A stretch of DNA of 59,378 bases from Folioceros fuciformis (lineage: Eukaryota). The stretch covers positions 1 to 59,378 of the forward strand of contig JBNGIO010005465.1 in NCBI GenBank assembly GCA_049999805.1. Direction: 5' to 3'. Below the pieces are notes generated by a model. It saw only the letters and a list, made by a program, of their open reading frames with translations, was not told the DNA's origin and searched no databases. Positions 8,640-48,585 of the stretch are shown here, one piece after another. Numbering within the stretch: position 1 is the stretch's first letter; every line of letters begins with the position of its first letter. The translations under genes and the position numbers were made by a program.

Positions 8640-9770
8640 CTACTCTGGAGACAAGTGTTGATGAACGGCTCGTAAGATGTCTGAGAAGGTGACGATGCCA
8701 AGCAGACGAGCTTGCTCGTCAGTAATCCAGACGTGATGGACCTGCTTGTCCAGAGCCTCAGACATGACCTGAGCTAGGCTAGCTGTTGGCAAGCAGGTGA
8801 CAGGAGGTCTGGGCACAGACGCTCCAGTAGCATCCGCATCGGCCTGATTCTGAGAAGCAGCACCTAGCCCATAGCGCATGGCGATGCGGGATCTGCTAAG
8901 AAAATCCAGCACGCCCATGGAGGACCACATCCGCAGGGCATCAGGCCCGCAACCCCGCAAGTCGGTGGCGGAGAAGGTGCCCACTATCCTCCTCCCGTGG
9001 CCGATGCTGAGACGGGGATCCAGGTTGCAAGCGGGCACGGGCTCCACAATGGCCACTGCCGACAGCTGCGCGTTGCGCATGCATTTGGCGGCGTTGGTTA
9101 CCGTCATGTCGGCAGGGATGGCGAACACCGTCTGCTGCACAGCCCCGGCGTCCGAGACGGTGTGCGAGGAGAGGAAGTCCCCCAGCTCGCCGTTATGCTC
9201 CCACAGGAAGCGCACCACGTCCGTCTGGGTGAGCATATGGTAGCCGGGGGAGAGCTCGGTGCGCTCCAGCCCGCTGGCGTGCCCGTGCGCCTGCTCCGGG
9301 TGGCTGCTGCATACCGGGACCAGCACCCGGTGCACGCCCTTGGACATGGGCTCCATGGCCTCTGCTAGCCTGGTGCTGGGATTGAGTGCCCACAGGTTTA
9401 GCCCCTCCAGCGAGTGCCCGATCACCGTGCTTGCCGGCGTCGACAACCGGCTTTCCACGTCCGGCAGCTCCTCCTCCTCTGTCACATGGATGAAAATGTC
9501 AAACACCGTGGCCATCCCGATGTAATGCTTTCGGGCCGCTCCTGTCGTTCTGTCGGATTCCTCGATTCTGGACCCTCCTGCTCCGATCCATTGGCCCGGG
9601 GGCGCCGCCACCGCCACTGCCACGATGTGGTGGGCGAGCAGCGCATTCAGCGTGTCGCCCACTGTCGCTGTGTACGGAACTTCCACCAGCCTGCTCTTAC
9701 CTTGCACCAATTGCTGCACGGTCGTGCGTTCCAGCAAGCTACCTCTCGCCGACTGCGCCTCCATCTTCAT
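8640..9770 (-). CDS. CBS-domain protein, SnRK1 gamma-like / PV42-like (single exon)
   Basis: RLVEVPYTATVGDTLNALLAHHIVAVAVAAPPGQWIGAGGS, MSKGVHRVLVP, MLTQTDVVRFL, IVGTFSATDLRGC, VHHVWITD...LLGIVTFSDIL; first ATG at 9770. Confidence 0.88.
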   Translation of the reverse strand: MKMEAQSARGSLLERTTVQQLVQGKSRLVEVPYTATVGDTLNALLAHHIVAVAVAAPPGQWIGAGGSRIEESDRTTGAARKHYIGMATVFDIFIHVTEEEELPDVESRLSTPASTVIGHSLEGLNLWALNPSTRLAEAMEPMSKGVHRVLVPVCSSHPEQAHGHASGLERTELSPGYHMLTQTDVVRFLWEHNGELGDFLSSHTVSDAGAVQQTVFAIPADMTVTNAAKCMRNAQLSAVAIVEPVPACNLDPRLSIGHGRRIVGTFSATDLRGCGPDALRMWSSMGVLDFLSRSRIAMRYGLGAASQNQADADATGASVPRPPVTCLPTASLAQVMSEALDKQVHHVWITDEQARLLGIVTFSDILRAVHQHLSPE

Positions 9771-9867
9771 CAAGATACTCGGAACCAAGCCCGCCAAGTG
9801 GAAGAGGCAAAAAACCTCATCTGCCTTGCCTTCCTCTGCTCAGAGACGTGAGCCAAGTGGCAACACC

Positions 9868-16274: not shown

Positions 16275-17399
16275 GGCTTCAACCTGCAAGACAAACCCCT
16301 ATTGCTTGAGCATTAGATCTGCGGGCAAAGTTGCAAAGCAGAGTGACCAGCGGAGTTCAACCTTGACCTGCAACGGCACCACCCGCGGCACGATCTGGAC
16401 AGGAAGCGCAAGCAGAGGTGCTACGGCCGCTTCGGGCCTCAAACCTCAGATCTGGCAGCCCCGACTGGGCCCAGTGTGGCAGGCACCTAGACTACGTTCC
16501 CAGATCTAAGCCTCCCTGCTCGCAAAACCCCGCTCATATTACAGACAGCGGCCCCACCAAGCAAGCGTCGATAACCCGATTCTTTCCTTCCCGACCGATT
16601 CATTCCTTGCATACGTACTTCATTCGGAATGTCCTGCTATAATACAAGTAAAAAACGCATACTTAAGTCTTACATAAACTTCATTGAACACATAATTAAC
16701 AGAGGACATAAAAGTTCTATAAGTTTATTGACTGGAGCATAAGCTAGATCCATTTTGTCAGGCGTCACGCTTTCATCTCTCCTGTTCATATGATAGTACT
16801 TCTCTAGCCGTTCATGTAATAGCACTTCTCTAATCTTACACGTACCTAAATTTTTCTCCCTTGGTGTTAATCCCAATACCTTCTCTAATCCTAAGAATTA
16901 CATTAAATATTCCATTTTGCTTAATTGAGTAGCGCAATGCTTCATTTTGGTAATCTGAGCTAATTCTTAAGCTTAGTCTTTTTGGTGATTGAAACTAATT
17001 CTTAAGCTTAGTTGAGATATTATCAATGCTCATTAAAGATTTTATCTTGATATGGACTAACAAAATAGAATAATGTCTCTATAAGATGGGACAAAAACAT
17101 TGGAAATCGAGAACTTTGATAGGTGGTGAACAATATGAACAAGGTGGCTAGCAAGAAGGATGGTGAAAATGTTGTTTGCTACAATGGTGATGATGCAAGC
17201 ACTCGCTCGAAGCCTGCTCAAGGAGGCACTTTGAGCTCCGTCTCTAATTCAAGGGCTAGTGACACCCCCCATGTTGCCTTGTTCGTATCAATTACATAGA
17301 CAGGTACTAAATCGAAAGACTCTAGTTCCTCGATATTGTCATTGTGGGCTCAAACCTTCTTACTATCTAGATAACTTACTGTCAGACATAGGAGAACAC

Positions 17400-20770: not shown

Positions 20771-23700
20771 GTCAGCGTCAGCGTAGCCATAAAGGGTAAG
20801 TACATCTTGCCCCTGGAAGTATAAGCCGTGATTCATGGTGCCTTTTAGGTAGCGAAGGATACGTTTAACAGCACTCTAGTGGGCTGGACTAGGGTCATCA
20901 AGGAACTGAGACACTGAACTGACTGCGTATTGTATATCGGGACGAGTCCAGCAACTTATGTAGTTGAGATAGCCAACGGCATGGCGATAAGGAATGTGAG
21001 ACATAGCTTGGCGGTCCTCCTCAGTTTGAGGGCACTGGTCATGGGAAAGCTTGACACCGAAAATGCCGGAGTAGACACTGATTGGGCAGAATCCAGGTGG
21101 AAATGGCCAAGCCTCTCAGCACTGTATTTAGCCTGGTGGAGCATAATAGTATGTTCAGCAAGATCGCGGGTCAACTGAATCCCTAAAACAAAGGTGAGAG
21201 CCCTGATATCCTTCATATCAAATTTTTGATGGAGCATTCCTTTCACCTAGGCTAGCAGACCTGGATCATTGGACGCGAGGATGGCATCGTCGACATACAA
21301 AGCTAGGATTACGAGGGATCTCTCTTCGAAGTAAACATAGACGTTTGCGTCGCCAGGGTTCTGTTGAAAACCGATGGACTTGAGGTAAGCATCGATAGTT
21401 TTATATCATTCTCGTGTAGATTGTTTTAGGCCGTAAATGGTCTTCTTGAGATGACAAACCCAGTCAGGATGATCAGGGCGGACAAACCCCTCAGGTTGCT
21501 CTATGTAAATGTCTTCTTCTAGCTCGTCATAGAGGACTGTTGAGCGTATGGTACAATCAGCTGCCTAACAATGCCCAAGTCAATGAGATATTGGTTGAAG
21601 TGACCGTGTACAAACTTAGTTCCATTATCTGTGCGCAAGCACTTGAGCAAGCATCCAGTTTGACGTTGAGCCATTTCTAGCCATTCTTGGAAAACACCAA
21701 AAATGTCCGACTTCAATCGTAAGGGGTAAGTCCAAGAATACCTACTATAATCGTCAGTGGTTGTTAGATAATATTGGGTACCACCTAGAGATGGAACATG
21801 GATTTTTCCTGAAATATCCGTGTGTACCAACTCCAGGATCTAGGAAGCACGGTGAGCGACAACCTTAGGAAAAGGTAACTCCTTTTGCTTGGCTATTACG
21901 CAGGCATCGCAAAGTGGCAAGGAGCTGAAGCACTTTGGAAGTGGCTCTCGATAGCACGAGAGGTTGGACATCTTCATCAACTTGTCACGATTAGCATGAC
22001 CCAATCGGGCATGCCAAAGGCTAGCCTGTGCGGACTGTGATAGGCGTGCAACATAAGCAGCTTCAAGAGGTATTGCACTGCAAGTCTAGTTGATAAAGAT
22101 TATGAACAAGATGTTCTATTGCTACGACCTTGCCTACTTTCCCACTCTTCTTAAGCAAACAGCTAGAAGAAGTAAATAGCAAGTCGTACAGACGTAGAGA
22201 CATTAGCTGGCTAATTGACAAGAGGTGCTTAGCCATGTGTGGAACGTACAGGACGTTATCAAGATGAAGGAATGAGCCATCATGAAGACGAAACCGACAT
22301 GAGCCAGAGCCTTCAATGAGCAGGCCAGTACACGTAACCTCATCCCCTAACAGCCCTTTGTTTGATGTCTGGGAGGGTCGGAAATGACTCAAAAGCAACT
22401 TATCATTGCAGATGTGAGAAGTGGCACCCGAGTCTAGGTACCAACTATGTGGAGAGGGTGCAGCTGAGGACGAGAAACAAACCGTCATTACCACTGGTGT
22501 TTTACCAGTAGTAGAAGTGGAAGTTCTGTCCTTGGCAACCACGTGTGCTTTCTCAGCTTTACGTGGTTCACCCGACTTCTTTTTTCGACACTCGCGTTCC
22601 TAGTGGCTCTTATTGCCACACTAGTTGCAAGTGCCAGTCCGTTTGGTTGGAGCAAGCTTAGAAGATTCGGCTCCATAGGTATTTGATCTACCATTATCAA
22701 AGTTTCGCCCCTGTGTGTACAGCACCTTATCCACTTTGATTCGACCATGCTGACCAGAGTGTGCTCGACTTTGCTATTCTTGTAACAGGGCTCCAACAAC
22801 ATCAGTAAAATTGATGTGGGCAACCTTCCCAGCAGCCATTGCCTTGTCAGCTGCGCGTATGGAAGCACCATAGCCAGAGACAAAAGTATGGTAACTGGGA
22901 GGTAAAGAAGAGAGCAACTGGGCAACAACGTCCAATTCAGGAAATGAGGAACCAAGGTTAAGTAGTTGAGCTCTTAGCTGGCGGAAACGAAGGAGGAAGG
23001 GTGACACCTTCTCCCCTTCCTTCAAACGAAGGGAGAACAGTTCTCCTCGTACAACACACAAGGTTAGTATGTTCCTTGCTTCGTACGTCTGGAGAAGCTG
23101 CTTCCAGATCTCTTCTGCTTTGAGCACATATGCAATATCAGGCACGAGGATTTCATCCAGCCCACTGATGGGGAAAGCACGTGCGACATCATTAAGGTTC
23201 TGCTATCTGTCTTTCTCATCTTGTGTTGCAGTAGCGGGAGGTTCTTGTACTGTGCCGCTAACAACTCCCCACACGTGTCTATCCTGCAGGGCAAAAGTCA
23301 TGCGCACTCGCCAGACTTCGAACTTGGTGCCGTTGAAGTGGTCCCGCTCTTTAAATTCAACACTGTAGGTTGGTTGTTGAGGGAACAAGGGCTGTGGAAG
23401 TGAGGATGGTGGAGGAGGAGGCAGCGGCAGAGGTGGAAGAGAGGGTGGTGGTGGTGGTAAGCCACCAGTACCCGTAACTCCATCGGAACCTGACATCTCA
23501 ATCTTTTGGTTGGTGCAGCAGGTAACCACGGTGTTAGCGTAGCCGGTTTTAGTCGCTACTTCAACAGGAGATCAAGATTTTTGGTGTAGCCTACGTCCTC
23601 CAAAAACGGTTGCTCTCACTCCAAGCTTCAGGCGATTTATGAAGGTAAGTGTCGGTTGAGGGATCCAGGGGAGGGAGAGCATGCCTCTTGACGGATGCCT

Positions 23701-27319: not shown

Positions 27320-27857
27320 TGGAAATGGAGTTCCAAACCCACCTTCTCGCTAGGGATAGTATGTACAGTACTCCTCATCTAGTTAGGGGTTCGATGCTAT
27401 GTTCACATTTGCGAGCAACGGCAGGGTTTAGACGAATTGTCGTTAGTTAGTACCTTGGACAGATCGCACGGGCAGTTTCTCTTGAGTAGGCAGCTATCCA
27501 TTTAGGGTGCTGCCACCAGACTGTTTGGTGCATGGACGTAGACTAGCTCGCGGAAGGAGTTCGGGATTGCAGATCCCGCAGGCACAGGCTTATCTTATAA
27601 GGACTGGTTCTTGCCGTCGGCGTTGGTGGGCTCGGATGCTGGGAATTGTATGTCCGCGGCACCCGCATCGCTGGCGCCCGGTTGGAAGCAGCCCCGTAGC
27701 AGTAACAGCAAATGCAGTCGTGAGTCTTGGGATGCAGCTCTTCTTGCCTTGCCCTGCCCTGGCTCTGGGAGTCCCGTAACCGTGTTAGGCCCAGGCATGA
27801 GTGCATGAAGCTGCTGAGAGTGGGACGCGCGGTGGTGTGACCTGACCTGCGGGAGGC

Positions 27858-28541
27858 ATGGCGAGAGGGACGAATGGGGATGATGTCAGCGACAATCAGC
27901 TGGCCGGGGGCAAGGGAAAGGTGCCGGGCTGGGCGGAGACTGTGGATCGGCTCCTGGATGCTTCCCCGCGCTACAGCGCTGCCTTGCGGGCCGCCTTTCT
28001 GCACTTTCAGTTGCCGCACCCGGTGAGCCTGCTGCCTCCGCAGCGACTCCTTCCCGCACTGGAATACTTCCTGCAGGTGCGTGTGGAAGAAGTCTGGTGT
28101 AGTGCTTGCTTCCCAGCTGCCGATACCGATGCCCATCCCTGGCCTGACGTGTTGTCTCTGTGTCGTCCGTTTTTTGTGCGTGTGTGTCAGAAAATTTCTC
28201 AAGAACTGGACCCTAAGGCAGGGAAACTCTGCTTGAGGCCTGTCACTCAGGAGGACATCGATGCCGCGTTACGGCTGGAGGATTGCGCTGCGCTTGAGCG
28301 GCCGATCACCATTGGCCAGTTTGACAGGATTGCAAGGAACATACTGAAGCGAGTGGCGTTGGACAGAGGAAAGCGCCTTGGCTTGTTCATGTTGGGAGGT
28401 ATCTTGGTGGTGCACGTGACAAAAGGCGCGGTCAAGAAGATTCCGTTTATTGGACCTCCGATTGGTGCCTTCGTCAACATCCTGGCACCTACAATTGTCG
28501 CAGGCCCCGCTGTGGGAGTTGCGGGAGCGATGTACTTGTAG
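27858..28541 (+). CDS. Uncharacterised protein, degenerate EF-hand-like core with hydrophobic C-terminus; probable in-frame intron 28077-28190
   Basis: GC-rich coding style; PVTQEDIDAAL...ITIGQFDRIARNILKRVA followed by hydrophobic segments and KGAVKKIPFIG, resembling the small plant 'calcium-binding EF-hand' membrane family; CAG|GTGCGT ... CCTGAC ... TGTCAG| splice signals. Confidence 0.65.
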   Translation: MARGTNGDDVSDNQLAGGKGKVPGWAETVDRLLDASPRYSAALRAAFLHFQLPHPVSLLPPQRLLPALEYFLQVRVEEVWCSACFPAADTDAHPWPDVLSLCRPFFVRVCQKISQELDPKAGKLCLRPVTQEDIDAALRLEDCAALERPITIGQFDRIARNILKRVALDRGKRLGLFMLGGILVVHVTKGAVKKIPFIGPPIGAFVNILAPTIVAGPAVGVAGAMYL

Positions 28542-28775: not shown

Positions 28776-29414
28776 CTATCGGCATGAGTTAGGCATTGAG
28801 GTAGCTGCCGTGGTGTCCTGCCAAGGAGCCAGGAGCTGGCAAACCACTTCCGCGGGCGCCCTGAACGCCAACTCCAATTCCAGGCTGGGGATTCCGGATG
28901 CGAGGAGCCCTCTGGACAGAGATACTGTGCCGGGATTTGAGCTGCTGTAGGCTGCGATGGATGTGGCCACTTTGGTGGACAAGTTGATGTGGTAATGCAT
29001 CAAGCCCTTGGGAAACACGAAGACGTCGCCCTGTTGCAAAGTCTGAGTGTAGAGTTTACCGCCCGTGTCCACCAGTCCGACGTTTATGGTACCGTCAATG
29101 AGATACAAAAGCTCCGTGCCGCGGGGATGTATGTGTACAGGATCTGTGTTGTTGGGGAAGTATTGCAACATCGTATACGAGACCCCGAGACCCTTTAAAG
29201 CCGGAAAGACGTGGTCATTTCCCTTGGAGAAATTGAAAGTACCGTCGGCAGCTTGAAAATTGCGGAAGCCTGTGAAGGTGAAGTAGTTGCCGTCCACCTC
29301 CAAGTCCGGTGGCACTTCGAAATCAGTCGTAAGCTCGGGGTCGGATGCTTCCACCGCACGCAAGAGTGTCACCAAACTCAAACTCGCTGCCACACCGGTC
29401 CAAAATCGCCACAT
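28776..29414 (-). CDS. Germin-like protein (cupin_1), secreted, 212 aa
   Basis: Signal peptide; germin box 1 PVHIHPRGTELL and box 2 GDVFVFPKGLMHYHIN with metal ligands H,H,E,H intact. Confidence 0.93.
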   Translation of the reverse strand: MWRFWTGVAASLSLVTLLRAVEASDPELTTDFEVPPDLEVDGNYFTFTGFRNFQAADGTFNFSKGNDHVFPALKGLGVSYTMLQYFPNNTDPVHIHPRGTELLYLIDGTINVGLVDTGGKLYTQTLQQGDVFVFPKGLMHYHINLSTKVATSIAAYSSSNPGTVSLSRGLLASGIPSLELELAFRAPAEVVCQLLAPWQDTTAATSMPNSCR

Positions 29415-30662
29415 TGTTCTTGCTGCGTGCCTTAATACTCAATCTAAAATTTCAACAAGTGTCGGCTTCAAACTTACTGATCCTCGCGATGCGATTGAGG
29501 TGAAGCGACAAGCGCGAAGACGGAAATTGGTTGGGAGCGAAACGATCCTTGTCCCCACTTATCGTCAAAGGTTGACGATCTGTGAAGGTTGAACTGTGCA
29601 TTTAAGGTAGCTGTGCCGTGAGACCTTCAGCGTCTTTGAGCTCTGGCACTTCGCGTGTGCAGTAGGCAGTCGTGATTTCCAACCTCACACCCAGATTATG
29701 ACCTCATGATACCCAGCTCAACCGTGCCGTTCGTCCTTATTTCCAAGCCCACACGCAGGTCATGACTTGATGATAGGCAGCTCAACAATTCGACTCATAA
29801 TACACCATCACTTTTGGCATTGCCGTGTCAGACTAACGGTTGTTTGTCCACGATCGTTTGGTGCAAAAAATGTGTTTCGTACTTGGCGAAGGGAGAGCGG
29901 CCTTGGCCTTTTCAGACTATCCCGTATGGACCAGCCAGGGCCTGTCTATCACCAATCCAACATTCCGGAGAGGACTATCTCGAATAAGATTCCTCCATCT
30001 CCTTCTTCGAGAGAACACCAAGTGTTGGCCACATCGGCATGACGTAAGTGCTCAAATGAGTATGCCTCATTTCTTCATTGTTCACCAAATTAGGTCACGG
30101 AAACTTGTCTCGATGGTGTTTATAGGCAGCCAATAGAAACTTGTCTTATGGTGTTTATAGGCAGCCAATAGAAACTTGTCTTGATGGTGTTCATAGGCAA
30201 TTGTTTATCATATTAGGTTGCAAAAATTTCTCTTAATGGTGTTTACAGGCATTCAAGACTTGTCCCCAAGAGTATGCCTCCCTTCTTTATTGTTCACGAA
30301 ATTAGGTTTCTTAATGGTATTCGTAGGCAACCAACATGACTATCCCCAATCTAGTTGGGCTCCTTGCTTTAGCTTTCACATCAAAATGAAAGGACATGTT
30401 GCTGAAGAGAAACTTGAAGACTTTAAAGAAAAAAAAAACTGGAAGTTCCATCTACCCCGTGACGAGGAGAACACTTGTCACAGGAACAACCCCAATAGGG
30501 AATGGGGGCCTAACCCCCTGTTGCATAAGTAGGTTGTCCATTGTTTGTTGCCTACAAGTCAAACATAACACAATTCTTGTAAAAAGGTTCCACTTGAGCT
30601 CCAGGATCTTGTATATCTTCCGGCCACTACAAGTTTTCACATTCAACTTTGTGATCAACGTG

Positions 30663-35235: not shown

Positions 35236-36309
35236 GTTTTTCTATATCTCCAATTGTGCTCTTCGGCTCTCAATAGGGCCTCTACTTCGCAAGTTTCAGC
35301 CTAGAACGCCCGATCCAGTAGCCACCAAAAACACAGACCACAACACACAACAATCCTCCCTTATTAGCCAGTTCCTTCCTCCATCAATCTGTCCTAATAT
35401 TGTTCCTCCCTCTCTCAGCATCAACTACCCAATCCTCGCTCCCTCTTCCTACCATAGTCTAGCCTATACTTGCCCACCCTCATCTTTCCTATCCTACTCA
35501 ATCAACTTCACAACCTACTTCACATCATCCATCTTCGTTGTGAGCTACCGCTACTGCAGCCTCTCCTTTAACTTGCCCAGCCTAGACTACATGCTTGCCT
35601 TTAGCCTGTAGCTAGCATAACCTCGACCCACATATACCCTAAATTGGCATAACCCCCATGTCGCAACCTGCGCCTCCATCCACCAATGAGGCCCAACCGT
35701 AAACCCTAAACCAGCATGCCTTGGGTAGCTTTGAACGAGGAACATGGTCCTAAAAGAATGAGGATGGCACTGAAGTTTTAAACATGAACCCTAACCATAT
35801 TTCCTTCCGAATGCGCAAATGGTAGGTGTAGATTTTTATGGAGTTTAATCTTCGGCAACCAAACATTTGTATCCAAGCCCAAAGCGACAAACCCACTCTT
35901 TAGAGAAACTTTTCACTTTTCTGCTAGACCCCCTCTCTCCGGTTTGGTGTGTTATGCCATGCTTACTTTTACATGGAAATACATTTTAAATCTTTTCTTT
36001 TGAGAGATATTTTACTTTTCATTTAATTAGTCCGATGTTTTCCGATGTCTGCGGAATTCTATATGGAGTCTAGAAGTCATATATTTATTTAGCTAAATAT
36101 ACACGGTTACAATTTCTTCAAGCTCTTAAATAAATGTACATGGATTGCACTTTCTTGCGCAACCTGGCTTCAAATTCACTTGGACTATTTTCGAAGTGGC
36201 CACCGTCCACAACGTTACATCGTAGTTGTCTTGCGCGTAGTCTGGCGGCTTTATCCTGAATCCCAATCGACAAGTAAGAAACATACCGAAACAAACCATC
36301 AGATACATT

Positions 36310-39300
36310 TCAAGCAACTGATCGCAGATTATCTCGTACCAGATGTTGCTGCCAACCCCTGCGGAGCCAGCCTGCAGTACTTGCTTCATTGTCCACTTCC
36401 CCATCGAAATCTTCAAACGTGACAAGCCAGGGCAGGCCCGTGTTTCGCCGCATCCGATCAATGGAGGGCGGGTTTCCGATGCGTCTGTTTTGTTGAAGGA
36501 GCTCCATGGCTCCAGTCGAATTCAGATATAGACATGTAGCTGCAATTAAAGTCCATATCAGTTAATCATGTTCACACGGAAAGAACACTGGGTCATGTAC
36601 AGGGAACCTACCTTCGCATTTAGAGCGCTTCAACTTCCCGGCCACCTCGCTCACGGTCGAGGCTTTCCTCTTCTTGCTTGGCTCCAGTAGAATTGGAGCG
36701 GGAGTGCGGGCAAGTGCAACAGCCTCCATGGCCTTGATGGCGTTGTTCTTCCCCACATGCTTCCCGGGCTGAGTCAATTGGGGTTGGTGGGCTTCTCGTC
36801 GACCCGGGCGATCTTTAGGATTCGATAGATTAAATTGTGCTCTCTCTGCCTCACAAGCAACTGCTGCACTGTGATTGGGACTCAACACCCGAATCCGTAG
36901 AGTGGGACTATGTACACGAGACCCTGAACCACACATTCAAACGAGGTTCAACAAGGACTGCTGTACATACATTCAACAACATTTATAAAGAAAAACAGGT
37001 AATCGCAATTACCGTCTGCCTTCAACTGAACGCAAAGTGGATCCAATAGACTGTACTCGACCAAAGGCCTTCTCGACATAGGATCCTGCATTTTCCACTC
37101 TGGAGTTAAAGGCATGACCAAAGGAAACAGGGAACCCAGAATTGCAAATGCATGCCATAAAGTATGAGTCTGTTCAAACACATACAAGAACTTTAATGCT
37201 TCGTTGACTTCTCTGGAGCATTGATGATGGCAGTAATTTATCATCTCCATCATCCTCCGCAGGGAGTAGGACATCACCGTTTTTGGTCTGCACAAGAGAA
37301 CCAACTCTTTTTAGGGACCTGACGGATATACGTGAGACGGTACATAATATGCTTGAATGTTAACAAAGCTATACCTGCAAGTACACAGGACCTCTAATGT
37401 CGTACTTTGGAACAAACACCTCGAGCCCCCTGGGAAGTACTCGCAGAACCTGCAAGATGTGAATTGCGTTACTGGTGTTGTTGTCAAACATACCCAGAGA
37501 ACATCAGCGCGGTTAGAGAACTTACAACTGCATGCTCCGCCTTTGCATACTTCTGAAGATACATAAGTAGATAGAGCTCATTGCACTCCTTCTGAGCAAC
37601 CTTGCTTGCTCTATGCCGCTGGTTCAAATGGTTTACTGTCTGCAGGTTCAAGCGTTTGACAGAAGAATTAAACTTCACAAGAAAACATAAACCTCATACT
37701 CATGTGGATAAACCTCCAAAACTTGAAGTGTCCAAGAGTACCTCTTTCAGGTCATACGTCTGCGAGACACCAATAGACAAAGGTCTCTTCACTGCACCAT
37801 ACGAAATGTCTTCAACAGCCTCCAGCAGCATACGATGCACAAGCACATCAGCATAACGCCGAATGGGGGACGTAAAATGAGTGTAAAACCTGTCAACCGT
37901 AAAACAGTGTCAAAATGTGGATGATGAAACATGTGCCTCGTCAAGTAAAGATAAGATTGCTATTGCTCAAGTACGTCTGATGTGTCTTACTTTAACGCTA
38001 ATCCGTAATGGTAGAAACTACTTGACTCAGAGACACCTTCAGTTGCACAGTACTTGGCCTGAAAAGCTTACCCAGCGTCAGACAGAGAATTGCAGAGACA
38101 GGTAAAATTCATTGGTTTTCAAGTAGTTTAAGCATATGCCTGTGTACATGCCACTTACTTCTGACATAGCTCGAGTTACCAGAGCCCTGAATGCATGCTG
38201 CCAAATTCATTATCCAACACCGAACAAGCCTATTAGTCCCATGTACAGAACTCAGAGGAGAAGCGAAGGAAGTTAAGTGATGCAGTGACACAAGTCCAAT
38301 AAGAATTAGCACCCTCGTTGTCATACCTCAATGACAGGATCACTGCTTTCTCGCATGCTGTCCAGGGAAACTGCCAGCGACTGCAAGTTGACAGCTTGGT
38401 GAGAAAATAGCTCTTTGAAACAAAACAACTGCAAACACTTAGAAACAATTTGCGTGCCTCTACCTTATTACTGGAGGCATCGAGTGTAAATCCTCTGGCT
38501 GCACAGCACTGTGGTTTGCTGAGCTGTTAGTGCACTGCTGGAAAACAGACAAAGTAACACCACCTTGCAAAGCTCAGCAAACAATGGCCCCGCGCGTACC
38601 TCAACTAGTAATGTGAAGCTGTCTAATTTTGGAGGAGCATGTTGCCGTAAAAGGGATGACGTAGGGAATGACCTAAAAGCTCAAGTATTCAAGAGAAAGG
38701 CCAACAATGGCAAAATGTAACAAGGAAATGGCTGAAGTAACAACTCACAAGCCAACACAGGATAACTTACTGATAAATGCGCTCAGCCACACACGCATTG
38801 GCCAATATCATCAGCTCTGCTACAATTGAATTCATCTGCAGGAGTGAAAGTGTGTGAGATGAGAATCAAAGAAAAAGATGAACCAAAAAAATTCAGCAAT
38901 GACTGGGATAAATATGACATTTTCGTACAGGTAGCTCAAGTTTTGCCTCGACATTCACAGGGTTGGTTACTTCATCCATATCAAACTTCAACTCAGCATT
39001 TGAGAGTTCTACCGCTCCGTCTGCCTTGCGAAGTGCTCGTCTTGTCTGCAGTTGAAGTCAAACAGCATAGGCATTCAGCCACAAGTCCACTGCAGTAGAT
39101 ACACAAGGCGGGAAACAAAAAAAGCTTTCATAGAGGCAAAACCCGAGACCACCAGTAAGTGGGAAATTACAAAATAAATCTACCCCACAACAGTTCACTC
39201 ACCTCAGCGAGCTTGGCAACCACTGCCAGTTCTATCTGCATTTGCCTCACTTCATCCATTCCACCACTTACTTCCAAACCAACAGGAAGTGGTTGGCCAT

Positions 39301-42300
39301 CCAAAATAAATTGAGCCTGAGCGTAGGACATCTGCCCAATGTACAACAAAATATGTGAGGTGATCATTTGTGTACCAGCTACGAAAGTTCCAAGTTTGCC
39401 TCGTTGCTTATCTAGTACCTGATGCTGAGACTTGATAATAGTTCTCCCGAACCATACATCCACTATCTCAAAATCGTTGTCAGGGTTGACTGTCCAAATG
39501 ACACTGACAGCCAGTCGTTCTTTTCCTCCCAGCAGTGAACATATGTCCTCACTGATGGATTCAGAAGACAACAGCAAGTATTCAGTTTGAGAAACACATT
39601 AAACCAACACACATGGAAAATGTGCATTTGCGAACAACAACTAACGATATGAGGAGCTAGGTCATGAAGCCCTTTACCTCAAAAGGCGTGGGAGCATTGG
39701 CCAATTCCTGCCAACCATATACACAGTCGTTCCGCGGTCACGAGCTTCCATATCTAGTAGGCCTCCTTGCTTCACAAAGTATGACACGTCCGCAATGTGA
39801 ACCCCAACCTGTAAAAAACGGCAAGGGATGACCCCAATGTTCTGGACTCTGCTACTTGCTACCAATGCGTTCATACTTGACAACAAACAAAGAACACCTC
39901 GAGTAGACCATTTTGAAGATGCCGGACTGAAAGTGCATCATCCACATCTTTGCTACCAGGAGGATCAACGCTGCCATTCACAAAATATTGAATATTGCCC
40001 CAAAGTTATGTACATCACAATACTCAGCCAGCCTGAAATAACAGGCCAACAACTGGAGAAGTCGGCATACTATACCTGAATGTCTTGTGCACAGCGCGGA
40101 GATCCCGGCGGAGAGAAAATTCTTCATCTGGAATTGTCCATGATCCATCTTCGGAGCTCTGAGGCAATTCCTGAAGAGCCCTGTCATCGATTGTCCACAT
40201 TCTGCATCAGAACCTCATTTCATCTAAGGCCTACTGGCCAGTACCTCGAATTGATGTCCAGTTGGCTACAGGATAACTCACAAACTGTTGAAAGCTGAAA
40301 TGTTGATCTCATTCTCCACCAGTATGGCAATAGTTTCTGTGTTGAGATCACCAATAGGCCCTAAAACACGGACCAGATGTCCTTCTGGGTGTTTCGAGTT
40401 GCTCTCCCAACCTGTTATACGTACTACAAACCTCTGCCCCACAAGGCGCAAACCTTGCCGGGTTGTGATACGAACCTAGAAGAGCACATTAAGATAAATT
40501 GTTTGCTTTTGAGAACAGGAAAACATATTCAAGCACAGTTTGAGGAAGAAAACAAACCATGGGAATACGCCTGTCTCTTGGGAAGCATAGCAGCTGCCAC
40601 AGCCTGCATGCAATCCATGTACATTGGGAAACTCAAGGCTGTAGATTCTGCAAGTGCAAGTGCAAGCTCATATGCTGTAGGAACAAATGGAAACAAAGAA
40701 ACCGGGTAACAAAAGGATAAAACTTACATGTCAGACCTTGACTGCAGAATCTCGCTCTCAGCCTCTTCTGTAAGGCAAGCAACATAATCCCTTTGTTTTC
40801 TTTGCAAGATACCCACTACTTTGCCTGTCGGAACATTCTGCTCCACAGCAGATGTAAGATCTGCAACACTTTCTTCGATTGACTTCAGACTGCCATCTTC
40901 ACGCAATTCATCATCCTCCAGTCTCGGAGACTCTGGGTCACTGGATTTCAGCGTTAGTTGACGCAGGCCTTGGTTTGGAGCTCTCCACTCTGACTGAGAT
41001 AGTAGATGCACCTATTCCCGAATATAAATGACTATCAGACACTGAAGTGAAGTATAATAAGTTAGTAAGTCCTGTCTGATAAAGCAACTTACCACTACAG
41101 TATCTCCGGGTAATGCCCTATTCTGGAGTGATGATCCTGGAATCAAAATTTGCAGCTGTGATGCTTCGTTCTTGTTGCTGATTGAATTGAAGCAGCACCC
41201 ACAAAGATGTCAATTCTAGCTATCAGGCACATGAATACTATACGACTTCTAAACACAATACGTATCAAGTCCTGTTAATCCTATTACTTGTGGGCAAGAT
41301 CAACCATGCTGACTGGTATCAATGATTACCTGGGTCGTACAAAACCCTCAGCCGGATCATGTTTGCTTACATGGAAAACACCTACTCGAAGCGTTCCATC
41401 CAGAAGCCCTTCTTCAATCATGTGGGCTGCAAGCAGAGTCAAAGAGCATGTCAATGGAAGGCCCCCGACCCCACTTTCAGGTAGTCCGAGGGCGTAACAG
41501 GCTCAGAGTGTAAATGTGGATTAAATGCAAATTTACAGAAGGTGCTTAAGCCTTTGACCTGAAAAATGCTCTTGATAAACAGAAGCACTTTTTCGATCAA
41601 CTCGTGAGCTGATCTGTGAAGCGGAGATACCGTCCAAAGTCTTTCCGATCGGATCCGCTCGCAATTCTAACTGGCGAGATAAGCACCCAATCAACCTCTT
41701 TAAGATAAAAAGGGAATCAGCCACTACCGAATCGAGGCGTCACAACGTACCAAGGAATTACACAATTCCATCACTGCTCCATCATGAGTCCAGAATCTCT
41801 GAAAGTAGTCCTTGGTATGCAAAACCTGCCAAACGGGCAGCTTAGATCTCCAAGACAGAAGTCACGGACAGAGAGGAAAGCCTCAGAACACAGAGAGGTC
41901 AGCTCATATTGCAAGTGCAAAGACAACCTTAATGGCTTGATCTTTTTCATCTCCTTCAGGTTCAAAGTCAAATGCCAGTGTGCGATTGAATTGCTCCAGC
42001 AAATCAACTTCTTCATCTTCATCATCGTCATCATCAAACGAGAATAGGTCCCTTTCTTTGCCAATCCACACAACGACATGCTTGTGTTTTCCAATATGCT
42101 CTGAGTACCAGGTTGCAAAACCTTTGGTACCTGGATGCCAACCCAGAGCCAAAAACTCATAAGACCAGTTAGAAACAATGGGAGTGGACAGAATGCTTCA
42201 CATCAATTAGTCACCTTTAGGATTTGACGGTATGGTTTCCGATGTATAGAGAAAATGTTCATTGTCGAAAAAGAGACAACCTCTCCGAGGGTCTGCCCAT

Positions 42301-43129
42301 AGTGACCTGCGTACATTCGTCCACTCCTTGTTAGACATCACAATCCACCAGAGGATTGATGAGACGTAAAAACAGCGAACAAAAAAACAAACCCCAATCA
42401 CGAGGGCGCACCTCAATCTCCTGTATCTCTGCTTCGACCGAGCCATAACCTGGACAGAGAATTGGCAAGTTAGCCTGTAGCAAGACACCAACATCAATAA
42501 TTGGACAGCAATGCCAAAGCCAGGACAGTCAAAATAGGACCTGCTTCAAAACAGATGCAAGATAGATGACACCGGTAAATTGCGGCAGCTCAAAGATCTC
42601 AAGAAACTCAAGAACGGCATCTGCATCCGGCACCTGCATCAGAACAGAAAAAAGGCTCAGGTGGACCGCAATTCCGATCCGGCGCAACGCACGACCACCA
42701 AGGCAAGAGCAAGGGGCATGTACCACATAATGTGAAGCGTTTGCTGGGAGTGGAGGCATTTCCTGCTGACAAAACTCACATTTCGCATAGCCACAGGGAA
42801 TATCATCCCGCAAGTAGGCCTCTTCGGTTTGAATCCTGACAGTTCTGGTTCTTCCCATATACTTGCACTTCCTTTGAACCTGTTCCCAATCACGAGGTCC
42901 ATTGCTCAGAAAACAAGCTCGACAAACATCCAATTACACAGCGGCGTAAGGACCTCCCAGCAGGATCGCATTCAGCAATTCCGTTAGCTTCGGGACCAAC
43001 AACAAAGCAGTCAGAGCCATTTCAACGCAGCTGGGAAAGCGAAAACCAGAGGGTTGAGAGTGCACGTCTCACCCCTCGTGCTACCCAGGTGCTGGCCATA
43101 TTGCAGTCCCTTGTTCCCAAACTTCCCAT
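36310..43129 (-). CDS. DIS3-like exonuclease 1-type RNase II/RNB protein (degenerate PIN, cold-shock, RNB, S1), many short exons; terminal exons inferred
   Basis: [151 protein letters not shown]; start proposed at ATG 43129 (or 43099) with intron 43072-42880; stop 36310 if the last intron is spliced. Confidence 0.88.
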
Positions 43130-43796
43130 ACTATAACTTGCAGCAGATATCTTGATGCTTGTACGTATGCTTCGACTGTGGCACGCCCTCCTTCTTCTTA
43201 TTTACCCTGCAATGTCCCAGACCTGCTAATCTGGCCTTCGAAATCTACCACGGCAAACGAAGACAGTGCCATATTCACAGTGCCTTCCCTGCTCCTGCGT
43301 TTGTCCTGTGTTCCCGACGGCAGGCCTTCGCCACCGTCGAATCGCCTCCCCGACTCAATGGTTTAAAATTAACATATGAACTTCAAAGCAAAATATAAGT
43401 TAAGAGGTAATGGTAATGAAATGAAACTTTGCTTAGTAGGTAAGCAAAGTTGGGAAAGGTTTTTGGAAACGAGGTGCCCAAAGTCTGTGAGAGCCTGAAG
43501 CAGGCATGTCCGTCTTCTTCCCGCCGCTTGTCCTGATCACAGCTAACAAAATGGCTCTGACCGTGTACAACTTCCCCACAAGGCAAGCGAGAGGACTGGC
43601 CTAGGAGGGCCGATCCTTTCCCTGCCATGCCGCTGTGAGCAAGTCGCAAGCGGATTTAGGGAGCCTTCTCCCCGTCCATGAGAAATCCGGAACTTCGTGA
43701 GCTGTGTGATGCCAAATTCATGAAACGCATGCACCTAAAGCGTGAGCTTGAAAGTGTGGATGTGTAGAGGGCAGGCCTGGACATGCGATAAATCAG

Positions 43797-44597
43797 ATGC
43801 CTGCACCCGCGGGCTCGCTTGCGTGGGGGGCGAGGATGCTGCGGTTTCCGGGCCCGTCGCGGATCCAGTGGGGTTCACTCTCACAACCCGGGGCTCCGCT
43901 TCCGGTGCGGCTGCGGACGGCCAGGAGATGGTCGGGCCAAGCGGTGACTCGAGCCTCCGGCGCCCAGGTGCCGTGGCTGATTGTGGGGCTGGGTAATCCG
44001 GGGTCCAAGTATGCGGGCACCCGGCACAACGTGGGGTTCGACATGGTGGACGCCATCGCTGCGGCTGAGGGCATCAAGATGTCGGTGGTGCAGCACAAGT
44101 CGGTGGTGGGGAAGGGCAGCATCTCGGGGACCCCGGTGCTGCTGGCCAAGCCTCAGACGTACGTGAACGCGAGCGGGGAGGCGGTGGGGCCGATGGCGGC
44201 GTACTACAGGATCCCGGTGGAGCGGGTGCTGGTGATCGTGGATTGTTTGGACTTGGATTTCGCGGTGATGCGGCTTCTGCCGCGGGGGGGCCATGGCGGG
44301 CACAACGGGGTGAAGTCGGTGGTGAAGAGCTTCAAGGGGAGCACGGATTTCCCACGCCTCCGGCTGGGGATCGGGAGGCCGCCGGCCTCCATGCACGTGA
44401 ACGTGTTCGTGCTACAACGCTTCAGCCCGGAGGAGCGGGCGGCTCTGGAGTTTTCTTTCCAGAAGGGGGTGGAGGCAGTGAGGATGGTGGCCAGTCAGGG
44501 GATCGAGCACGCGGTTAGCACGTGGAACGAGAACCGGAGGGCCAGGACTCCGCAGTCTGTGCTGGAACAGGACGCCCGGTTTGAAGGAGGCCGGTGA
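43797..44597 (+). CDS. Organellar (probably plastid) peptidyl-tRNA hydrolase, Pth/CRS2 family, intronless
   Basis: Arg/Ser-rich transit-like N-terminus; WLIVGLGNPGSKYAGTRHNVGF; LAKPQTYVNASG; GGHGGHNG; FPRLRLGIGRPP. Confidence 0.92.
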   Translation: MPAPAGSLAWGARMLRFPGPSRIQWGSLSQPGAPLPVRLRTARRWSGQAVTRASGAQVPWLIVGLGNPGSKYAGTRHNVGFDMVDAIAAAEGIKMSVVQHKSVVGKGSISGTPVLLAKPQTYVNASGEAVGPMAAYYRIPVERVLVIVDCLDLDFAVMRLLPRGGHGGHNGVKSVVKSFKGSTDFPRLRLGIGRPPASMHVNVFVLQRFSPEERAALEFSFQKGVEAVRMVASQGIEHAVSTWNENRRARTPQSVLEQDARFEGGR

Positions 44598-45514
44598 CAG
44601 GTGCGGGCTCGCTTTGCTTGTCCCAGGCTCGTTCTCGGTGCTCCTTTCCTCACGGTATCGAATGTTTGACAAGGTCTGGACGGTTGCAAGCTCCCAGCCG
44701 CTGCTCAAAGGCAGTCATGCTTGCGCTGCTGCTTCTTTGCCTGCCCTACTCCCCTGAATATCCTGCCGAGTCTGCCGCTTTCTCCATGCGCTGCAGCACA
44801 GCTGTGTCCCATGAGCTACTGCCCGCCACCTCACTGCAACTTCTGGATGTGAGGCTGTCATTCCGTACACTGGTAGCTTGGAGCTGGCATACAACGCGTA
44901 AGTTGCTGCATTGTGGCTCCTTCCTCCGCAGGAATGTAGAATTCTTTTCATCTTCCCTCGCACAGCTGGTCATGCCATGAGTCCTGCTCTTCCAGCTTCC
45001 CAGGTTTGGAGCCGTTTTGGAAGTCTCCAATTCTCCGGCTCTGCCAGGGTCCTGGTAGTGAAACTGTAGTCTGGTACCGACTTTTTCATGGCCTCCCGTG
45101 CAGTGCAGTGCACACAGCAGCTGCCCGCAAGGCTGGAGGAGAGCCTCTCTAACTTGGACGTAGAGACGCCGTGTCTTTGAGCGACGGACGGCACTTACTT
45201 CTGCATCTCTTTCCAGACAGTTGTTCACCTAAACATCACATCAAAGAATCTGGAATCACTTTATACTTCCAGAATCTGATCTCGAGGAAAACCTAGCATT
45301 CGAATTATCTGCGCATGGTTACTTATTTGTTCTTCATATATCTATATACAAGTACTTTGTTTTTTCTTCATACACAAAATCGGAACACCTTCCTTAACCA
45401 ATCCAGCATCTCTACAACTTTTGTTCCACTTTCCAACTTTCCAAAACCAGGAGATCTATGTATCTTAAATCTTCTGTTGTCAAATATTTCATTATATTAA
45501 TTTTTATAATTCAC

Positions 45515-46009
45515 ATGGGTACTACAAGCAACTCACAACCTCTCCCTCCTCCTAACATTGTTGGGCTTCATTATGAGTGTGGCCAACTTATTGCTGCCAA
45601 TGATCCAGCTCTTTTGTTTATCAAGCGTGCATTAGATATGTATTTCGACGACGAATCTGATAGAATTGAATTGGCGATTTCGTCTCCTAAGTATGTTGTA
45701 CTCAAGCTGCAAATTTATGGGTGGCAAATTTTCCGAATGTTGATAAGTGTTGCATGTTATGGAGAAAGAGAGACAATGCAAACTGACCTTCAATGTCGGG
45801 AGTGTCTAGATTTTTTGAAGAATGAACTTCTAAACACATTGTGTCCATCACATAGAAGTGCATATAGATTAGCAGTAGATTGTTTCTTTGGGTACACAAT
45901 AGATAATCCCACATTTTGTCGACCTTTACCTCCAGATCCTCTTCGAAAATTTGACAAAACTAATTCTTGTCCGAAACCTCCCTATCCTGTAATTGAATTA
46001 GGTAAATAA
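45515..46009 (+). CDS. Orphan hypothetical protein (164 aa from ATG 45515) in an AT-rich island
   Basis: Stop-free for 165 codons in AT-rich DNA, A/T-ending codons, helical Cys-containing sequence; no family recognised. Confidence 0.5.
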   Translation: MGTTSNSQPLPPPNIVGLHYECGQLIAANDPALLFIKRALDMYFDDESDRIELAISSPKYVVLKLQIYGWQIFRMLISVACYGERETMQTDLQCRECLDFLKNELLNTLCPSHRSAYRLAVDCFFGYTIDNPTFCRPLPPDPLRKFDKTNSCPKPPYPVIELGK

Positions 46010-47088
46010 TATGATATTCATTGTATAAGATAATAATAATAATTAAAATTATAAATTAAATAGTTTTTAAAAATATATTTTTGAGGACAGTTTTAACAAG
46101 ATGCATGGCTAATTTTGTTCATATGATCTCATACAAGTCTTTTGATTTGGGAAGATTTATATACTGAGAAGAGCGTTAGCTTTAATGCGAGAACAGCCTC
46201 CTTCCAGAAAATGTCAAAGCTACTAACATTCCTCTCTTCTGCTCTGGACTGGCCGGGCCCATAGGCTGCGATTTTTGTCTAGAATGATTCCTTCCCACTC
46301 GAAGTACAAAAGTACTCGGAGATTCCCGGACATGACCGTGGATCTCTTAGCTGGATCCCCCATTTGGTCTAGACGTCAGGGATTGTTTCAGGTTTCACGA
46401 CAGTGATGGAAGCTTTTATCTCTGTATATGGAGTATTCCGTCGGCGACAGCTCTCAACTGCCTGGCCATGACGGCTGCAGTTTTGCATGCCCGAGGTGAA
46501 CGGGAGGCAGAGAAAGAACGCGGAGCAGGATGTGGGGGCTTCTCTTTGTGATCTCGGATGAAACCTCGGACGAAGTTTTGGTGGCTGTGGTTGCTGACTG
46601 GTGAAGATAAGATATACGTAAATTGATTCGGGACTGTCACTAACGACAGACACGGTGGGCAGGCGGATGACGACAGGTGAGGTGATGTTGGACTGGCAGC
46701 GGTGCTGCAAATGGGAGAAGTACGTCTGTGTTTCAGGATGTCGTACAGCCTTGACTGCCTTGCGACACGGAGTAGATGAGAATCCCGATTTCAACCAGGA
46801 TGTAGAAGGTCGGCTAGCATCATGCGACGACGCACTGGAAGTGTGGGAAGGAATCACGGTCCATAGCTTTCAGCTGTGGTGAAGGTTTAAGTCAGTTGTC
46901 GGCGTACGGTACTGGATCAGCATATGCTGCATCCGGGATCTTTTGAGGGATACAGCACACCGGTATCCTGAACTCGGGGCTCTCGGGAGTGACCGAGGAA
47001 TGTAGAGGCTAGGGATGGACCCCGGAAGCCTGGAGTGGAGGATGCCTGTCCCAGACTGAGGAGTGCGGAGAAGGTGAGAAGGGAGAGG

Positions 47089-48585
47089 ATGTCGGGGCCA
47101 GCACGGGGCTCGCTCACGGTGCAGCTGCAGCGAGCTCTGGGACAGGCGCTGAGGAGGAGCAACGGTGGCGGCCAATCGCAAGTTCCGACTGGTGTCCAGC
47201 AGAGGCAAGTTGCGACTCTGGCGTACTTGGAAGATGTGCTGATGTGGGATGAGTCGGGGTTTGGGGACCAGTGTGAGATGGAGCTCCCTAACTTGCATGC
47301 CTACCAGGCTCTGCACAGCGAGCTCGCGACGCTCATCGGTCAGGCGGCGTGCTGCCTGGAACCGCAGCCCGATGCAGTGGCCTTGCAGCCGCCTGCACCA
47401 GCCCCTGCCGATGCCGATGCCGATGCTCTTCAACAAGACTTGAGCATGGGCGAGGTGACGAACATGTTGTTGGATTGTGCTGCGGCAGTGGCCGCACATG
47501 ATGTCAGCAAGGCTACCGAGAGCGTGAACTATTTGAGGCGGTACACCAATCCGGCCGGCTCGCCGTTGCAGCGCATGACGCATTATTTCGTGGAGGCATT
47601 GGTGGCAAGATTGCACGGAACAGGACCAGCACTGTATGCCGTGAAAGGCAGCCTGTACGGGTTCTATTCTTGCAGAGCCTACCAACTCTTGTGCTCAAAA
47701 CTGCCATTATTTTCCATGGCTTACCAGTTCACCAACAGCGTCCTTCTGGACGCATTCAGTGGCGCTCGCCGAGTGCATGTGATCAGCTACGGTATCCTGA
47801 ATGGCCGCCAGTGGCCGAGCTTCATCCGCGAGCTTGTCTACCGCCCCGGAGGGCCGCCTGAGCTGCTGCGGATCACTGGGATAGAGTTCCCCCAGCCTAG
47901 CCTGGACATGGATGACCAGTTGAAAAGGACTGGGGAAAGACTGTCTAAGTTTGCAGCCAGCGTGGGAATTCGCTTCGAATTCCAAGGCTTCGCAGAGTAT
48001 TGGGAGGATGTGCAGGTTTCCTCTTTACGTCTGCACAGGGATGAAGTTCTTGCTGTGTGCTGCACCTACAGGCTCCGACATCTGCCGGACAGCTCGGTGG
48101 TACCGTCTAATCCGAGACGCATTGTGCTGGAGAGAATTCGCAGCATGAATCCCAAGGCTTTTGTCACGGGAGTCAACAACTGCGCTGCCAACGACCACTT
48201 CTTGGTGAACAGGATTCCTGATGCTGTTGGCTATATGGCCAACCTCTTCGACTCGTATGGCCACACGCTGAGCCACCATGAGGAGGAGAGACTGATTCTG
48301 GAGAGAGATATTGCTGCTCGCATTATCATCAATTTTATTGCCTGCGAGGGCTTGGATAGAACTGAGCGAGGCCAGTCCTATCGTCAGTGGCACCGTCTGC
48401 TTAAGAATACTGGTTTCAAACAGATACCTTTACAGGAGAATTGGTTCCAAAGCACTGCTGGTATCATGGAAGGCTACCACCAGGATTTCACCGTCGGACG
48501 TCACAAGGAATGGATTCTTCATGGGTGGAAGGAGAGAATTCTGTGGGCCTTGGGAGCATGGAAACCAGCGCAAACCTCTAGATAG
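47089..48585 (+). CDS. GRAS transcription factor, LISCL/SCL14-like, intronless
   Basis: TLAYLEDVLM N-terminal motif; LLDCAAAVA; GSPLQRMTHYFVEALVARL; VHVISYGILNGRQWP; LRITGIEFPQP; ACEGLDRTER; WKERILWALGAW (SAW motif); first in-frame ATG 47089 (in-frame stop at 46990). Confidence 0.93.
   Translation: MSGPARGSLTVQLQRALGQALRRSNGGGQSQVPTGVQQRQVATLAYLEDVLMWDESGFGDQCEMELPNLHAYQALHSELATLIGQAACCLEPQPDAVALQPPAPAPADADADALQQDLSMGEVTNMLLDCAAAVAAHDVSKATESVNYLRRYTNPAGSPLQRMTHYFVEALVARLHGTGPALYAVKGSLYGFYSCRAYQLLCSKLPLFSMAYQFTNSVLLDAFSGARRVHVISYGILNGRQWPSFIRELVYRPGGPPELLRITGIEFPQPSLDMDDQLKRTGERLSKFAASVGIRFEFQGFAEYWEDVQVSSLRLHRDEVLAVCCTYRLRHLPDSSVVPSNPRRIVLERIRSMNPKAFVTGVNNCAANDHFLVNRIPDAVGYMANLFDSYGHTLSHHEEERLILERDIAARIIINFIACEGLDRTERGQSYRQWHRLLKNTGFKQIPLQENWFQSTAGIMEGYHQDFTVGRHKEWILHGWKERILWALGAWKPAQTSR

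Follow-up and report, generated by a model that had tools for sequence, protein, structure and literature searches.

Introduction

Is the exosome nuclease DIS3L (DIS3L1) confined to animals? The question is raised by a many-exon gene of the RNase II family on the minus strand of contig JBNGIO010005465.1 of the plant Folioceros fuciformis (assembly GCA_049999805.1), at positions 36118..43129. The window of the present analysis is the whole of that contig, 59,378 nt, and all coordinates are given on its forward strand. An initial annotation had proposed that it encodes a third, DIS3L1-like paralogue with a dead PIN domain and an active RNB domain. Published statements make DIS3L metazoan-only or not conserved in plants. 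Dis3L1 was reported in metazoa only from PANTHER and a 76-species set, the latter without plants (PMC8097288); DIS3L has been described as the second paralogue of animals (PMC8894942); and Arabidopsis is credited with RRP44A and SOV only (PMC3820695). The available portions of PMC5735172, PMC13271354 and bioRxiv 10.64898/2026.02.23.705090 hold nothing on a plant DIS3L. No publication describing one was found in a search of titles and abstracts, most subscription journals lying outside that search.

On the evidence of its sequence, the window gene is almost certainly the plant orthologue of animal DIS3L. The DIS3L family, its mechanism and the database name were known already; what is new is the membership of plants, which contradicts the statements in the literature.

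Phylogenetic placement of the window protein

The main tree was built from 64 rows chosen from about 430 proteins, with 598 columns running from cold-shock domain 2 to S1 and the PIN domain excluded. Support for the branch between the 36 DIS3L-like rows and the 27 DIS3 rows was 100/98, and all of 200 bootstrap trees (100%) contained it. The green sequences formed a clade (100/100), and so, inside it, did those of land plants with the window protein (100/100); animals were grouped with Mucoromycota (99/95). Members of the DIS3L clade came from animals, Mucoromycota, Amoebozoa, green algae, liverworts, Selaginella and gymnosperms. The DIS3 side had the same spread, with a fish, an ascomycete, a choanoflagellate, Ostreococcus, land plants and others. 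The DIS3L/DIS3 split was recovered at 99 in a mixture-model tree made by quick search, and a 140-row quick tree with all 120 matches of the relatives search (below) was in agreement. The split was also found, at 92/80, in a tree of the PIN domain only (62 rows, the two without a PIN being excluded), and therefore the gene is not a chimera. In all trees the window protein stood in the DIS3L clade, in agreement with the third paralogue that had been proposed, and the trees support the ancient origin proposed with it. In the 140-row tree, P0024 and P0067 together branched deep within DIS3L, belonging neither to the green plants nor to the group of animals, fungi and Amoebozoa.

Two other placements were rejected by approximately unbiased (AU) tests, run under LG+G4 on columns without the PIN domain. 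Nesting of the window protein with land-plant RRP44A cost 486 log units (p 6.7e-97), and a duplication confined to the green lineage cost 216 log units (p 4.2e-24). Comparisons with known structures gave the same picture. The Marchantia orthologue scored 583 bits against human DIS3L and 456 against human DIS3 in PDB, and the RRP44A of this genome scored 898 bits against DIS3 and 507 against DIS3L. For a model of the Selaginella orthologue, with a predicted local distance difference test (pLDDT) of 83, the top two Foldseek matches were human DIS3L chains, with about 1050 columns aligned. ESM Atlas gave 0.98 for DIS3L clusters and 0.97 for DIS3 clusters, values too close to separate them.

A PF00773 search of the genome found four genes: the window DIS3L gene, an RRP44A gene, a DIS3L2/SOV-type gene and a distant gene with introns, probably an organellar RNase II. 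The RRP44A gene (L002, G000:C5634) is an intronless single open frame with the NDRND motif, all four PIN acids and a Pfam PIN_4 match; the window gene is not, then, the sole PIN-containing Dis3 gene of the genome. The DIS3L2/SOV-type gene (L001, G000:C1662) has a DLDD motif and no PIN in the frame read. That the window protein is not itself DIS3L2/SOV, as first proposed, is confirmed by its PIN-like N-terminus, by its DVDD motif and by the identity of the genome's DIS3L2 as another gene. A one-exon search of the genome for a second DIS3L copy returned the window gene and RRP44A only. Both the DIS3L and the RRP44A of this genome branched early in land plants; support for these positions, outside the sampled liverworts, moss and vascular plants, was weak.

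Protein domains and residues

Near the N-terminus, the window protein has a YRD motif (Y41, R43, D45) and three cysteines (C48, C53, C56), encoded at 42769..42816 on the minus strand and lying in the same alignment columns as those of the genome's RRP44A. In yeast Rrp44 the YRD motif and the three cysteines are the exosome-binding and zinc sites, and to our knowledge exosome binding is their sole known use. The motif was present as Y-R-D or Y-R-N in 33 of the 36 DIS3L-like rows, the other three having gaps there.

A PIN-like domain follows at about aa 68-240 (41667..42735, minus strand). Pfam PIN_4 gave no match in three plant DIS3L orthologues, so the PIN call rests on the alignment, on a DIS3L profile and on the fold of the Selaginella orthologue. 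The window protein keeps D74, and has Q102, P144 and K170 opposite the E, D and D of the genome's RRP44A, the columns of P144 and K170 lying in a variable stretch where the alignment register is less sure. H132 is kept, aligned to RRP44A, and there is an acidic insertion at aa 177-187. None of the 36 DIS3L-like rows had all four PIN acids, as against 23 of the 27 DIS3 rows. The initial annotation's statement that the PIN keeps only its first acidic residue holds for the window protein. Eight further land-plant orthologues in the tree set have a PIN; seven of these also keep the glutamate, and none keeps the third aspartate. On the non-green DIS3L profile the N-terminus of the window protein scored 130 bits, compared to 103 on a DIS3 profile that included plant RRP44A. 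Inside the DIS3 clade, P0256, P0266 and P0285 (Rhizamoeba and Paulinella among them) lacked three of the PIN acids; PIN death has therefore occurred more than once.

The RNB exoribonuclease domain, recognised by PF00773 matches, spans about aa 535-875 (37829..40110, minus strand). Its 11-residue catalytic motif (39937..39969, minus strand) is intact, as first described, with D548, D554, D556 and D557 in place, and Y600 and R865 are also kept in the alignment. The four aspartates were found in 63 of the 64 alignment rows, the remaining row being a fragment with gaps. The DVDD form of the motif was present in 99 of 126 DIS3L-clade rows and in none of 121 plant RRP44A proteins. All of the motifs quoted in the initial annotation were present in the translation. 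Their claimed likeness to DIS3L was checked at the N-terminus against the human PDB chain, and elsewhere against vertebrate orthologues. LLRQH was a chance likeness to vertebrates, the other land-plant orthologues compared having LLRRH, LLRKH or LLRCH. Overall, the window protein was about 36% identical to animal orthologues, 33-34% to RRP44A and 45-50% to land-plant orthologues.

Relatives and distribution

The Selaginella orthologue served as query in a search for relatives, in which scoring was confined to 7995 candidates of 645-2055 aa; of the 3030 matches, the best 120 were examined. The first 13 were land-plant-grade rows, including Selaginella, Riccia, Marchantia, Calypogeia, Cryptomeria, Taxus, Gb_38988 (Ginkgo by its prefix) and three more. 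Green algae, animals and Mucoromycota followed, and one match, from a nematode, was a DIS3. Welwitschia was found by name look-up, as were four Amoebozoa (Mastigamoeba, Pelomyxa, Protostelium and Copromyxa). Marchantia and Chlamydomonas species have DIS3L orthologues. Retention of the gene in a plant lineage, as first proposed, was borne out, and the range proved wider than the initial annotation had thought, taking in gymnosperms, green algae, Mucoromycota and Amoebozoa. Its guess that the gene might already be automatically annotated in non-seed plants was right; a one-exon search matched Selaginella records named "DIS3-like exonuclease 1".

Among the best 120 of the 3030 matches, none carried the name of a flowering plant, moss, fern or streptophyte alga. 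The same search with an RRP44A query returned mostly flowering plants. Because an angiosperm orthologue should outrank animals, and yet none was among the best 120, DIS3L has likely been lost in flowering plants, as had been suggested. About 20 rows of Mucoromycota and four of Amoebozoa had DIS3L, though PMC8097288 sampled both groups and reported Dis3L1 in metazoa only.

Gene structure and splicing

The best-homology model of the window gene has 33 coding exons and encodes 1241 aa. On the minus strand, exons 1-11 lie at 43129-43073, 42879-42724, 42633-42541, 42449-42412, 42306-42215, 42130-41928, 41825-41751, 41670-41559, 41426-41330, 41177-41093 and 41011-40728. Exons 12-22 lie at 40603-40558, 40475-40282, 40180-40076, 39970-39898, 39808-39678, 39551-39419, 39331-39203, 39045-38929, 38835-38771, 38672-38600 and 38508-38464, and exons 23-33 at 38380-38327, 38197-38159, 38058-37991, 37889-37742, 37639-37526, 37449-37375, 37287-37186, 37085-37013, 36923-36612, 36539-36340 and 36255-36118. 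The 32 introns are short, from 72 to 193 bases. The second ATG (43099) fits the starts of the orthologues better than the first (43129), and gives a protein of 1231 aa. The stop codon is at 36120-36118; the gene end first placed at 36310 falls in the last intron (36256-36339), which is spliced out in the contig described next.

The splice evidence came from a single assembled contig in a public run (X1) that the tool guessed to be RNA; no run on record as RNA contained the stretch. The run consists of contigs, which carry no strand, expression level or isoform shares, and an assembled contig keeps a single path and drops the others. The contig, of 5913 bases, was at least 99% identical to the gene, contained no other letters, covered the gene and skipped 32 introns. 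The alignment listed 29 of the 32 joints, and all 29 were GT..AG on the minus strand. The remaining three were placed by exon-length arithmetic together with a loose end: of six candidate sets, only one gave the required exon length of 1075 bases. A second contig, of low depth and only 90-95% alike, lay over about 41925-42128, apparently across the acidic PIN exon. Transcription and splicing of the gene were seen, and we infer the coding mRNA.

In two neighbouring introns, the contig used acceptors that break the frame, by -71 and +44 bases (net -27). At the first, the downstream acceptor 40941 skips 71 coding bases of cold-shock domain 1 (40941..41011, minus strand), for which orthologues have matching residues, and leads to a stop at 40940-40938. 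At the second, the upstream acceptor 40648 retains 44 bases (40604..40647, minus strand) that are intronic in the in-frame model. That model uses acceptors 41012 and 40604, which were chosen by homology, without RNA. When the AG acceptors of both introns were enumerated, nine combinations gave a frame of more than 1000 codons. The pair 41012 and 40604, which gives 1241 codons, agreed best with the orthologues, in that the cold-shock strand was present and the fit to liverworts was ungapped before the LLC motif. The same spacing at the 40604 acceptor was found in P0001, a relative with 74% identity across the exon that follows. Orthologues P0010, P0011 and P0013 are full-length (1221-1263 aa) and come from contigs of 3.9-4.4 kb, a size that fits spliced transcripts. 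The two frame-breaking acceptors possibly reflect regulated unproductive splicing.

The C-terminal tail

After FTSPIRR, the window protein has 382 residues, compared to a median of 156 in 121 plant RRP44A proteins. Such a tail after S1 is a DIS3L-like trait, unlike RRP44A. In human DIS3L, the C-terminal domain binds Exo9 beside the RRP45 tail (PMC11540850). In the window protein a short helix is predicted at 36625..36660 (minus strand), after KKRK (aa 1109-1112); its likeness to the final helix of the C-terminal domain in animal and fungal DIS3L is weak. Two amoebozoan tails were recognised by a profile of animal and fungal tails, at 17.8 and 12.5 bits; 15 of the 88 tails in this test could not be cut and were excluded. 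The window protein ends in an extension of about 75 aa with two predicted helices (36118..36429, minus strand), conserved in land-plant orthologues only. This last-75-residue element was found in 13 land-plant rows, namely 10 that built the profile, two near-copies and Welwitschia (57 bits), and no other protein of the compared set exceeded 4.1 bits.

Other genes of the genome and the window

The genome contains genes of the Exo9 type and a SKI2 N-terminal domain, and its RRP45 gene is split by introns. The human RRP45 tail wraps the DIS3L C-terminal domain. In the RRP45-like gene (L016 2580-3368) the C-terminal frame is charged and long, reaching up to 263 aa. Single long open frames were frequent among housekeeping genes, namely RRP44A (L002, at G000:C5634), two RNase PH subunits, COG2, a CBS protein and beta-COP; such frames lay in L002, L012 and L015 and in the window at 6204-8498, 8640-9839 and 13407-16298, in contrast to the 32 short introns of the DIS3L gene.

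An intronless peptidyl-tRNA hydrolase gene (43752-44597, plus strand) and the DIS3L gene stand head to head, with about 700 bases between the former and the start of the latter. Because the RNA contig continues unbroken beyond 43740, their transcripts may overlap, or a single bidirectional promoter may serve both. Pfam matches identified a cupin of the germin type (28776-29438, minus strand) and a GRAS-domain gene (46993-48585, plus strand), and two plus-strand frames of 231 and 203 aa (27846-28541 and 45398-46009) had no Pfam match. Pieces of copia-type retrotransposons, interrupted by stops, lay on the minus strand at 2344-4395 and 22063-22599, with integrase core and SH3 matches for 2347-3336. 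That the window is a contaminant contig is unlikely, given that the protein nests among land plants and that the window has the GRAS gene and the germin-type cupin.

Discussion

What would such a protein do in a plant? The steps proposed here are drawn from the mechanism of human DIS3L (PMC11540850). The YRD motif, the cysteines and the dead PIN would anchor DIS3L to Exo9, under the cytoplasmic exosome. The SKI complex, through SKI2, would deliver RNA, which would thread the exosome barrel into the RNB site and there be cut to nucleotides. The window DIS3L would lack endonuclease activity, and RRP44A would handle the nuclear work. In the history proposed alongside, the DIS3/DIS3L split would have preceded the parting of green plants and Amorphea; DIS3L would then have disappeared repeatedly, one of the losses falling on the flowering-plant stem or close to it. 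By analogy with the human enzyme, a role of the window protein with the cytoplasmic exosome is probable. The picture as a whole, of a plant DIS3L orthologue predicted to be a hydrolytic 3'-5' exoribonuclease that docks under the cytoplasmic nine-subunit exosome, we judge likely.

Several observations weigh against this picture. As to history, the tree was rooted on one long DIS3L2 branch, a single sequence (no additional DIS3L2 outgroup was obtained from metagenome contigs), and the branch of the window protein was itself long, 0.32 as against 0.07-0.11 for liverworts. One might suppose that RRP44A was duplicated in plants alone and that the copy, its PIN site lost, grew to resemble DIS3L by convergence, since PIN sites decay in the DIS3 clade too (4 of 27 rows). 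This reading is rejected, with next to no chance left to it: both AU tests speak against it, both clades contain animals, fungi and green plants in mirror order, and the PDB scores favour DIS3L for the Marchantia orthologue. An early horizontal transfer of DIS3L from an amorphean cell to green plants would leave the function the same and make the history younger. No named stramenopile, alveolate, rhizarian, red alga or discoban occurred among the 126 DIS3L-clade rows, and the base of the DIS3L clade was poorly supported (82/82 and 62/10), both as a transfer would have it. In no tree, however, was the green clade nested inside animals, fungi or amoebae; chlorophytes and land plants branched as expected, so that any transfer would be older than their split; P0024 and P0067 represent a further deep lineage; and repeated loss is already required in yeasts and flowering plants. 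We regard such a transfer as quite improbable.

As to function, a true DIS3L orthologue might have changed its job in land plants, becoming nuclear, tissue-restricted or, via the new C-terminal extension, independent of Exo9. The extension of about 75 aa is indeed found in land plants only, and the match to the Exo9-binding C-terminal domain was weak. On the opisthokont profile of that domain the tail of the window protein scored 0.0 bits, as high a score being given by 2 of 100 shuffles; only 2 of 11 land-plant tails beat all of their own shuffles on the same profile; and profile against profile, one 15-column helix was matched, with a score of 21.8 against a shuffle maximum of 14.9 (n=60) and a probability of 13%. 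The KKRK of the window protein, and KRRK in Selaginella, could be a nuclear import signal, absent at that place from most orthologues checked (it was found in 2 of 7 land-plant proteins). Plant Exo9 is itself phosphorolytic (PMC5735172), and a cytosolic hydrolase may be less needed. We nevertheless think a changed job unlikely, the YRD motif being kept wherever the DIS3L-like rows are not gapped, the three cysteines being kept in the window protein and the domain order being that of human DIS3L. A gene that is fading in Folioceros fuciformis, or is throttled by unproductive splicing so that little or no full-length protein is made, is suggested by the single contig, whose own splice form has the two frame-breaking acceptors and ends at codon 336, a 336-aa truncation. 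The long branch and the frequent loss of the family point the same way. On an acceptor matrix made from the 30 other acceptors of the gene, the RNA-used site 40648 outscored the in-frame 40604 (7.7 vs 3.9). At the first intron, however, the RNA-used 40941 was the weaker (-0.7 against 1.4, the score of 41012, and 3.4). In addition, no stop interrupts the 1241 codons of the 33 exons, all catalytic residues are in place, a conserved cold-shock strand is still encoded by the 71 bases that the contig skips, the 40604 acceptor gives the ungapped liverwort match and the spacing shared with P0001, and an assembled contig keeps one path only. A fading or throttled gene is therefore improbable too, and a working plant DIS3L orthologue remains our preferred explanation.

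The findings can be joined in a broader proposal, which we put forward tentatively and would not ourselves back as a whole. The split between a nuclear DIS3 and a cytoplasmic, PIN-dead DIS3L might lie at or near the last eukaryotic common ancestor. Green algae, bryophyte-grade plants, lycophytes and gymnosperms might have a unique cytosolic exosome, with a phosphorolytic Exo9 core and a tailed DIS3L. Flowering plants might have lost DIS3L and rewired the complex, and unproductive splicing might tune the gene in at least the Folioceros lineage. RIPR has been reported in flowering plants only.

The prevailing view was built on yeast and Arabidopsis, both apparently from lineages in which DIS3L was lost. 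Should the trees prove correct, an exosome with two nucleases would be ancient, Arabidopsis would represent the derived state and the DIS3/DIS3L split would move far back in time. Arabidopsis Exo9 purifications contained only trace RRP44, which co-purified poorly (PMC8894942, PMC6711988), and plant DIS3L therefore offers a handle on the question of which nuclease serves the cytosolic exosome in plant RNA decay. Marchantia and Chlamydomonas are genetically tractable, so that knock-outs, tagging and co-purification of the orthologues are feasible.

Among known systems, the nearest is human DIS3L (DIS3L1; PDB 9G8M, 9G8N), the cytoplasmic exosome exoribonuclease, which has the same clade and domain order as the window protein. 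The two share a degenerate PIN, an intact RNB site, DVDD, an SR-x-H-type motif at the end of S1 and a tail after S1. They differ in that the tail of the window protein is about 100 aa longer and only weakly like the Exo9-binding C-terminal domain, with a helical end confined to land plants, and in the acidic PIN insertion. Plant RRP44A/DIS3 (Arabidopsis At2g17510, and L002 here) has in common with the window protein the YRD motif and cysteines, the PIN fold, two cold-shock domains, RNB and S1. Unlike the window protein, it has four PIN acids, a Pfam PIN_4 match and DIDD, ends at S1 and belongs to the other clade, and the copy in this genome is intronless. DIS3L2/SOV (RRP44B, and L001 here) shares membership of the RNB family and cytoplasmic decay, but has no PIN in the frame read, has DLDD, served as the tree outgroup and acts independently of the exosome (PMC8894942). 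The records named "DIS3-like exonuclease 1" from Selaginella moellendorffii, Marchantia polymorpha, Coccomyxa and Chlorella are direct orthologues of the window protein, with the land-plant identities given above; judged by the trees, that automatic name, given by similarity only, is right.

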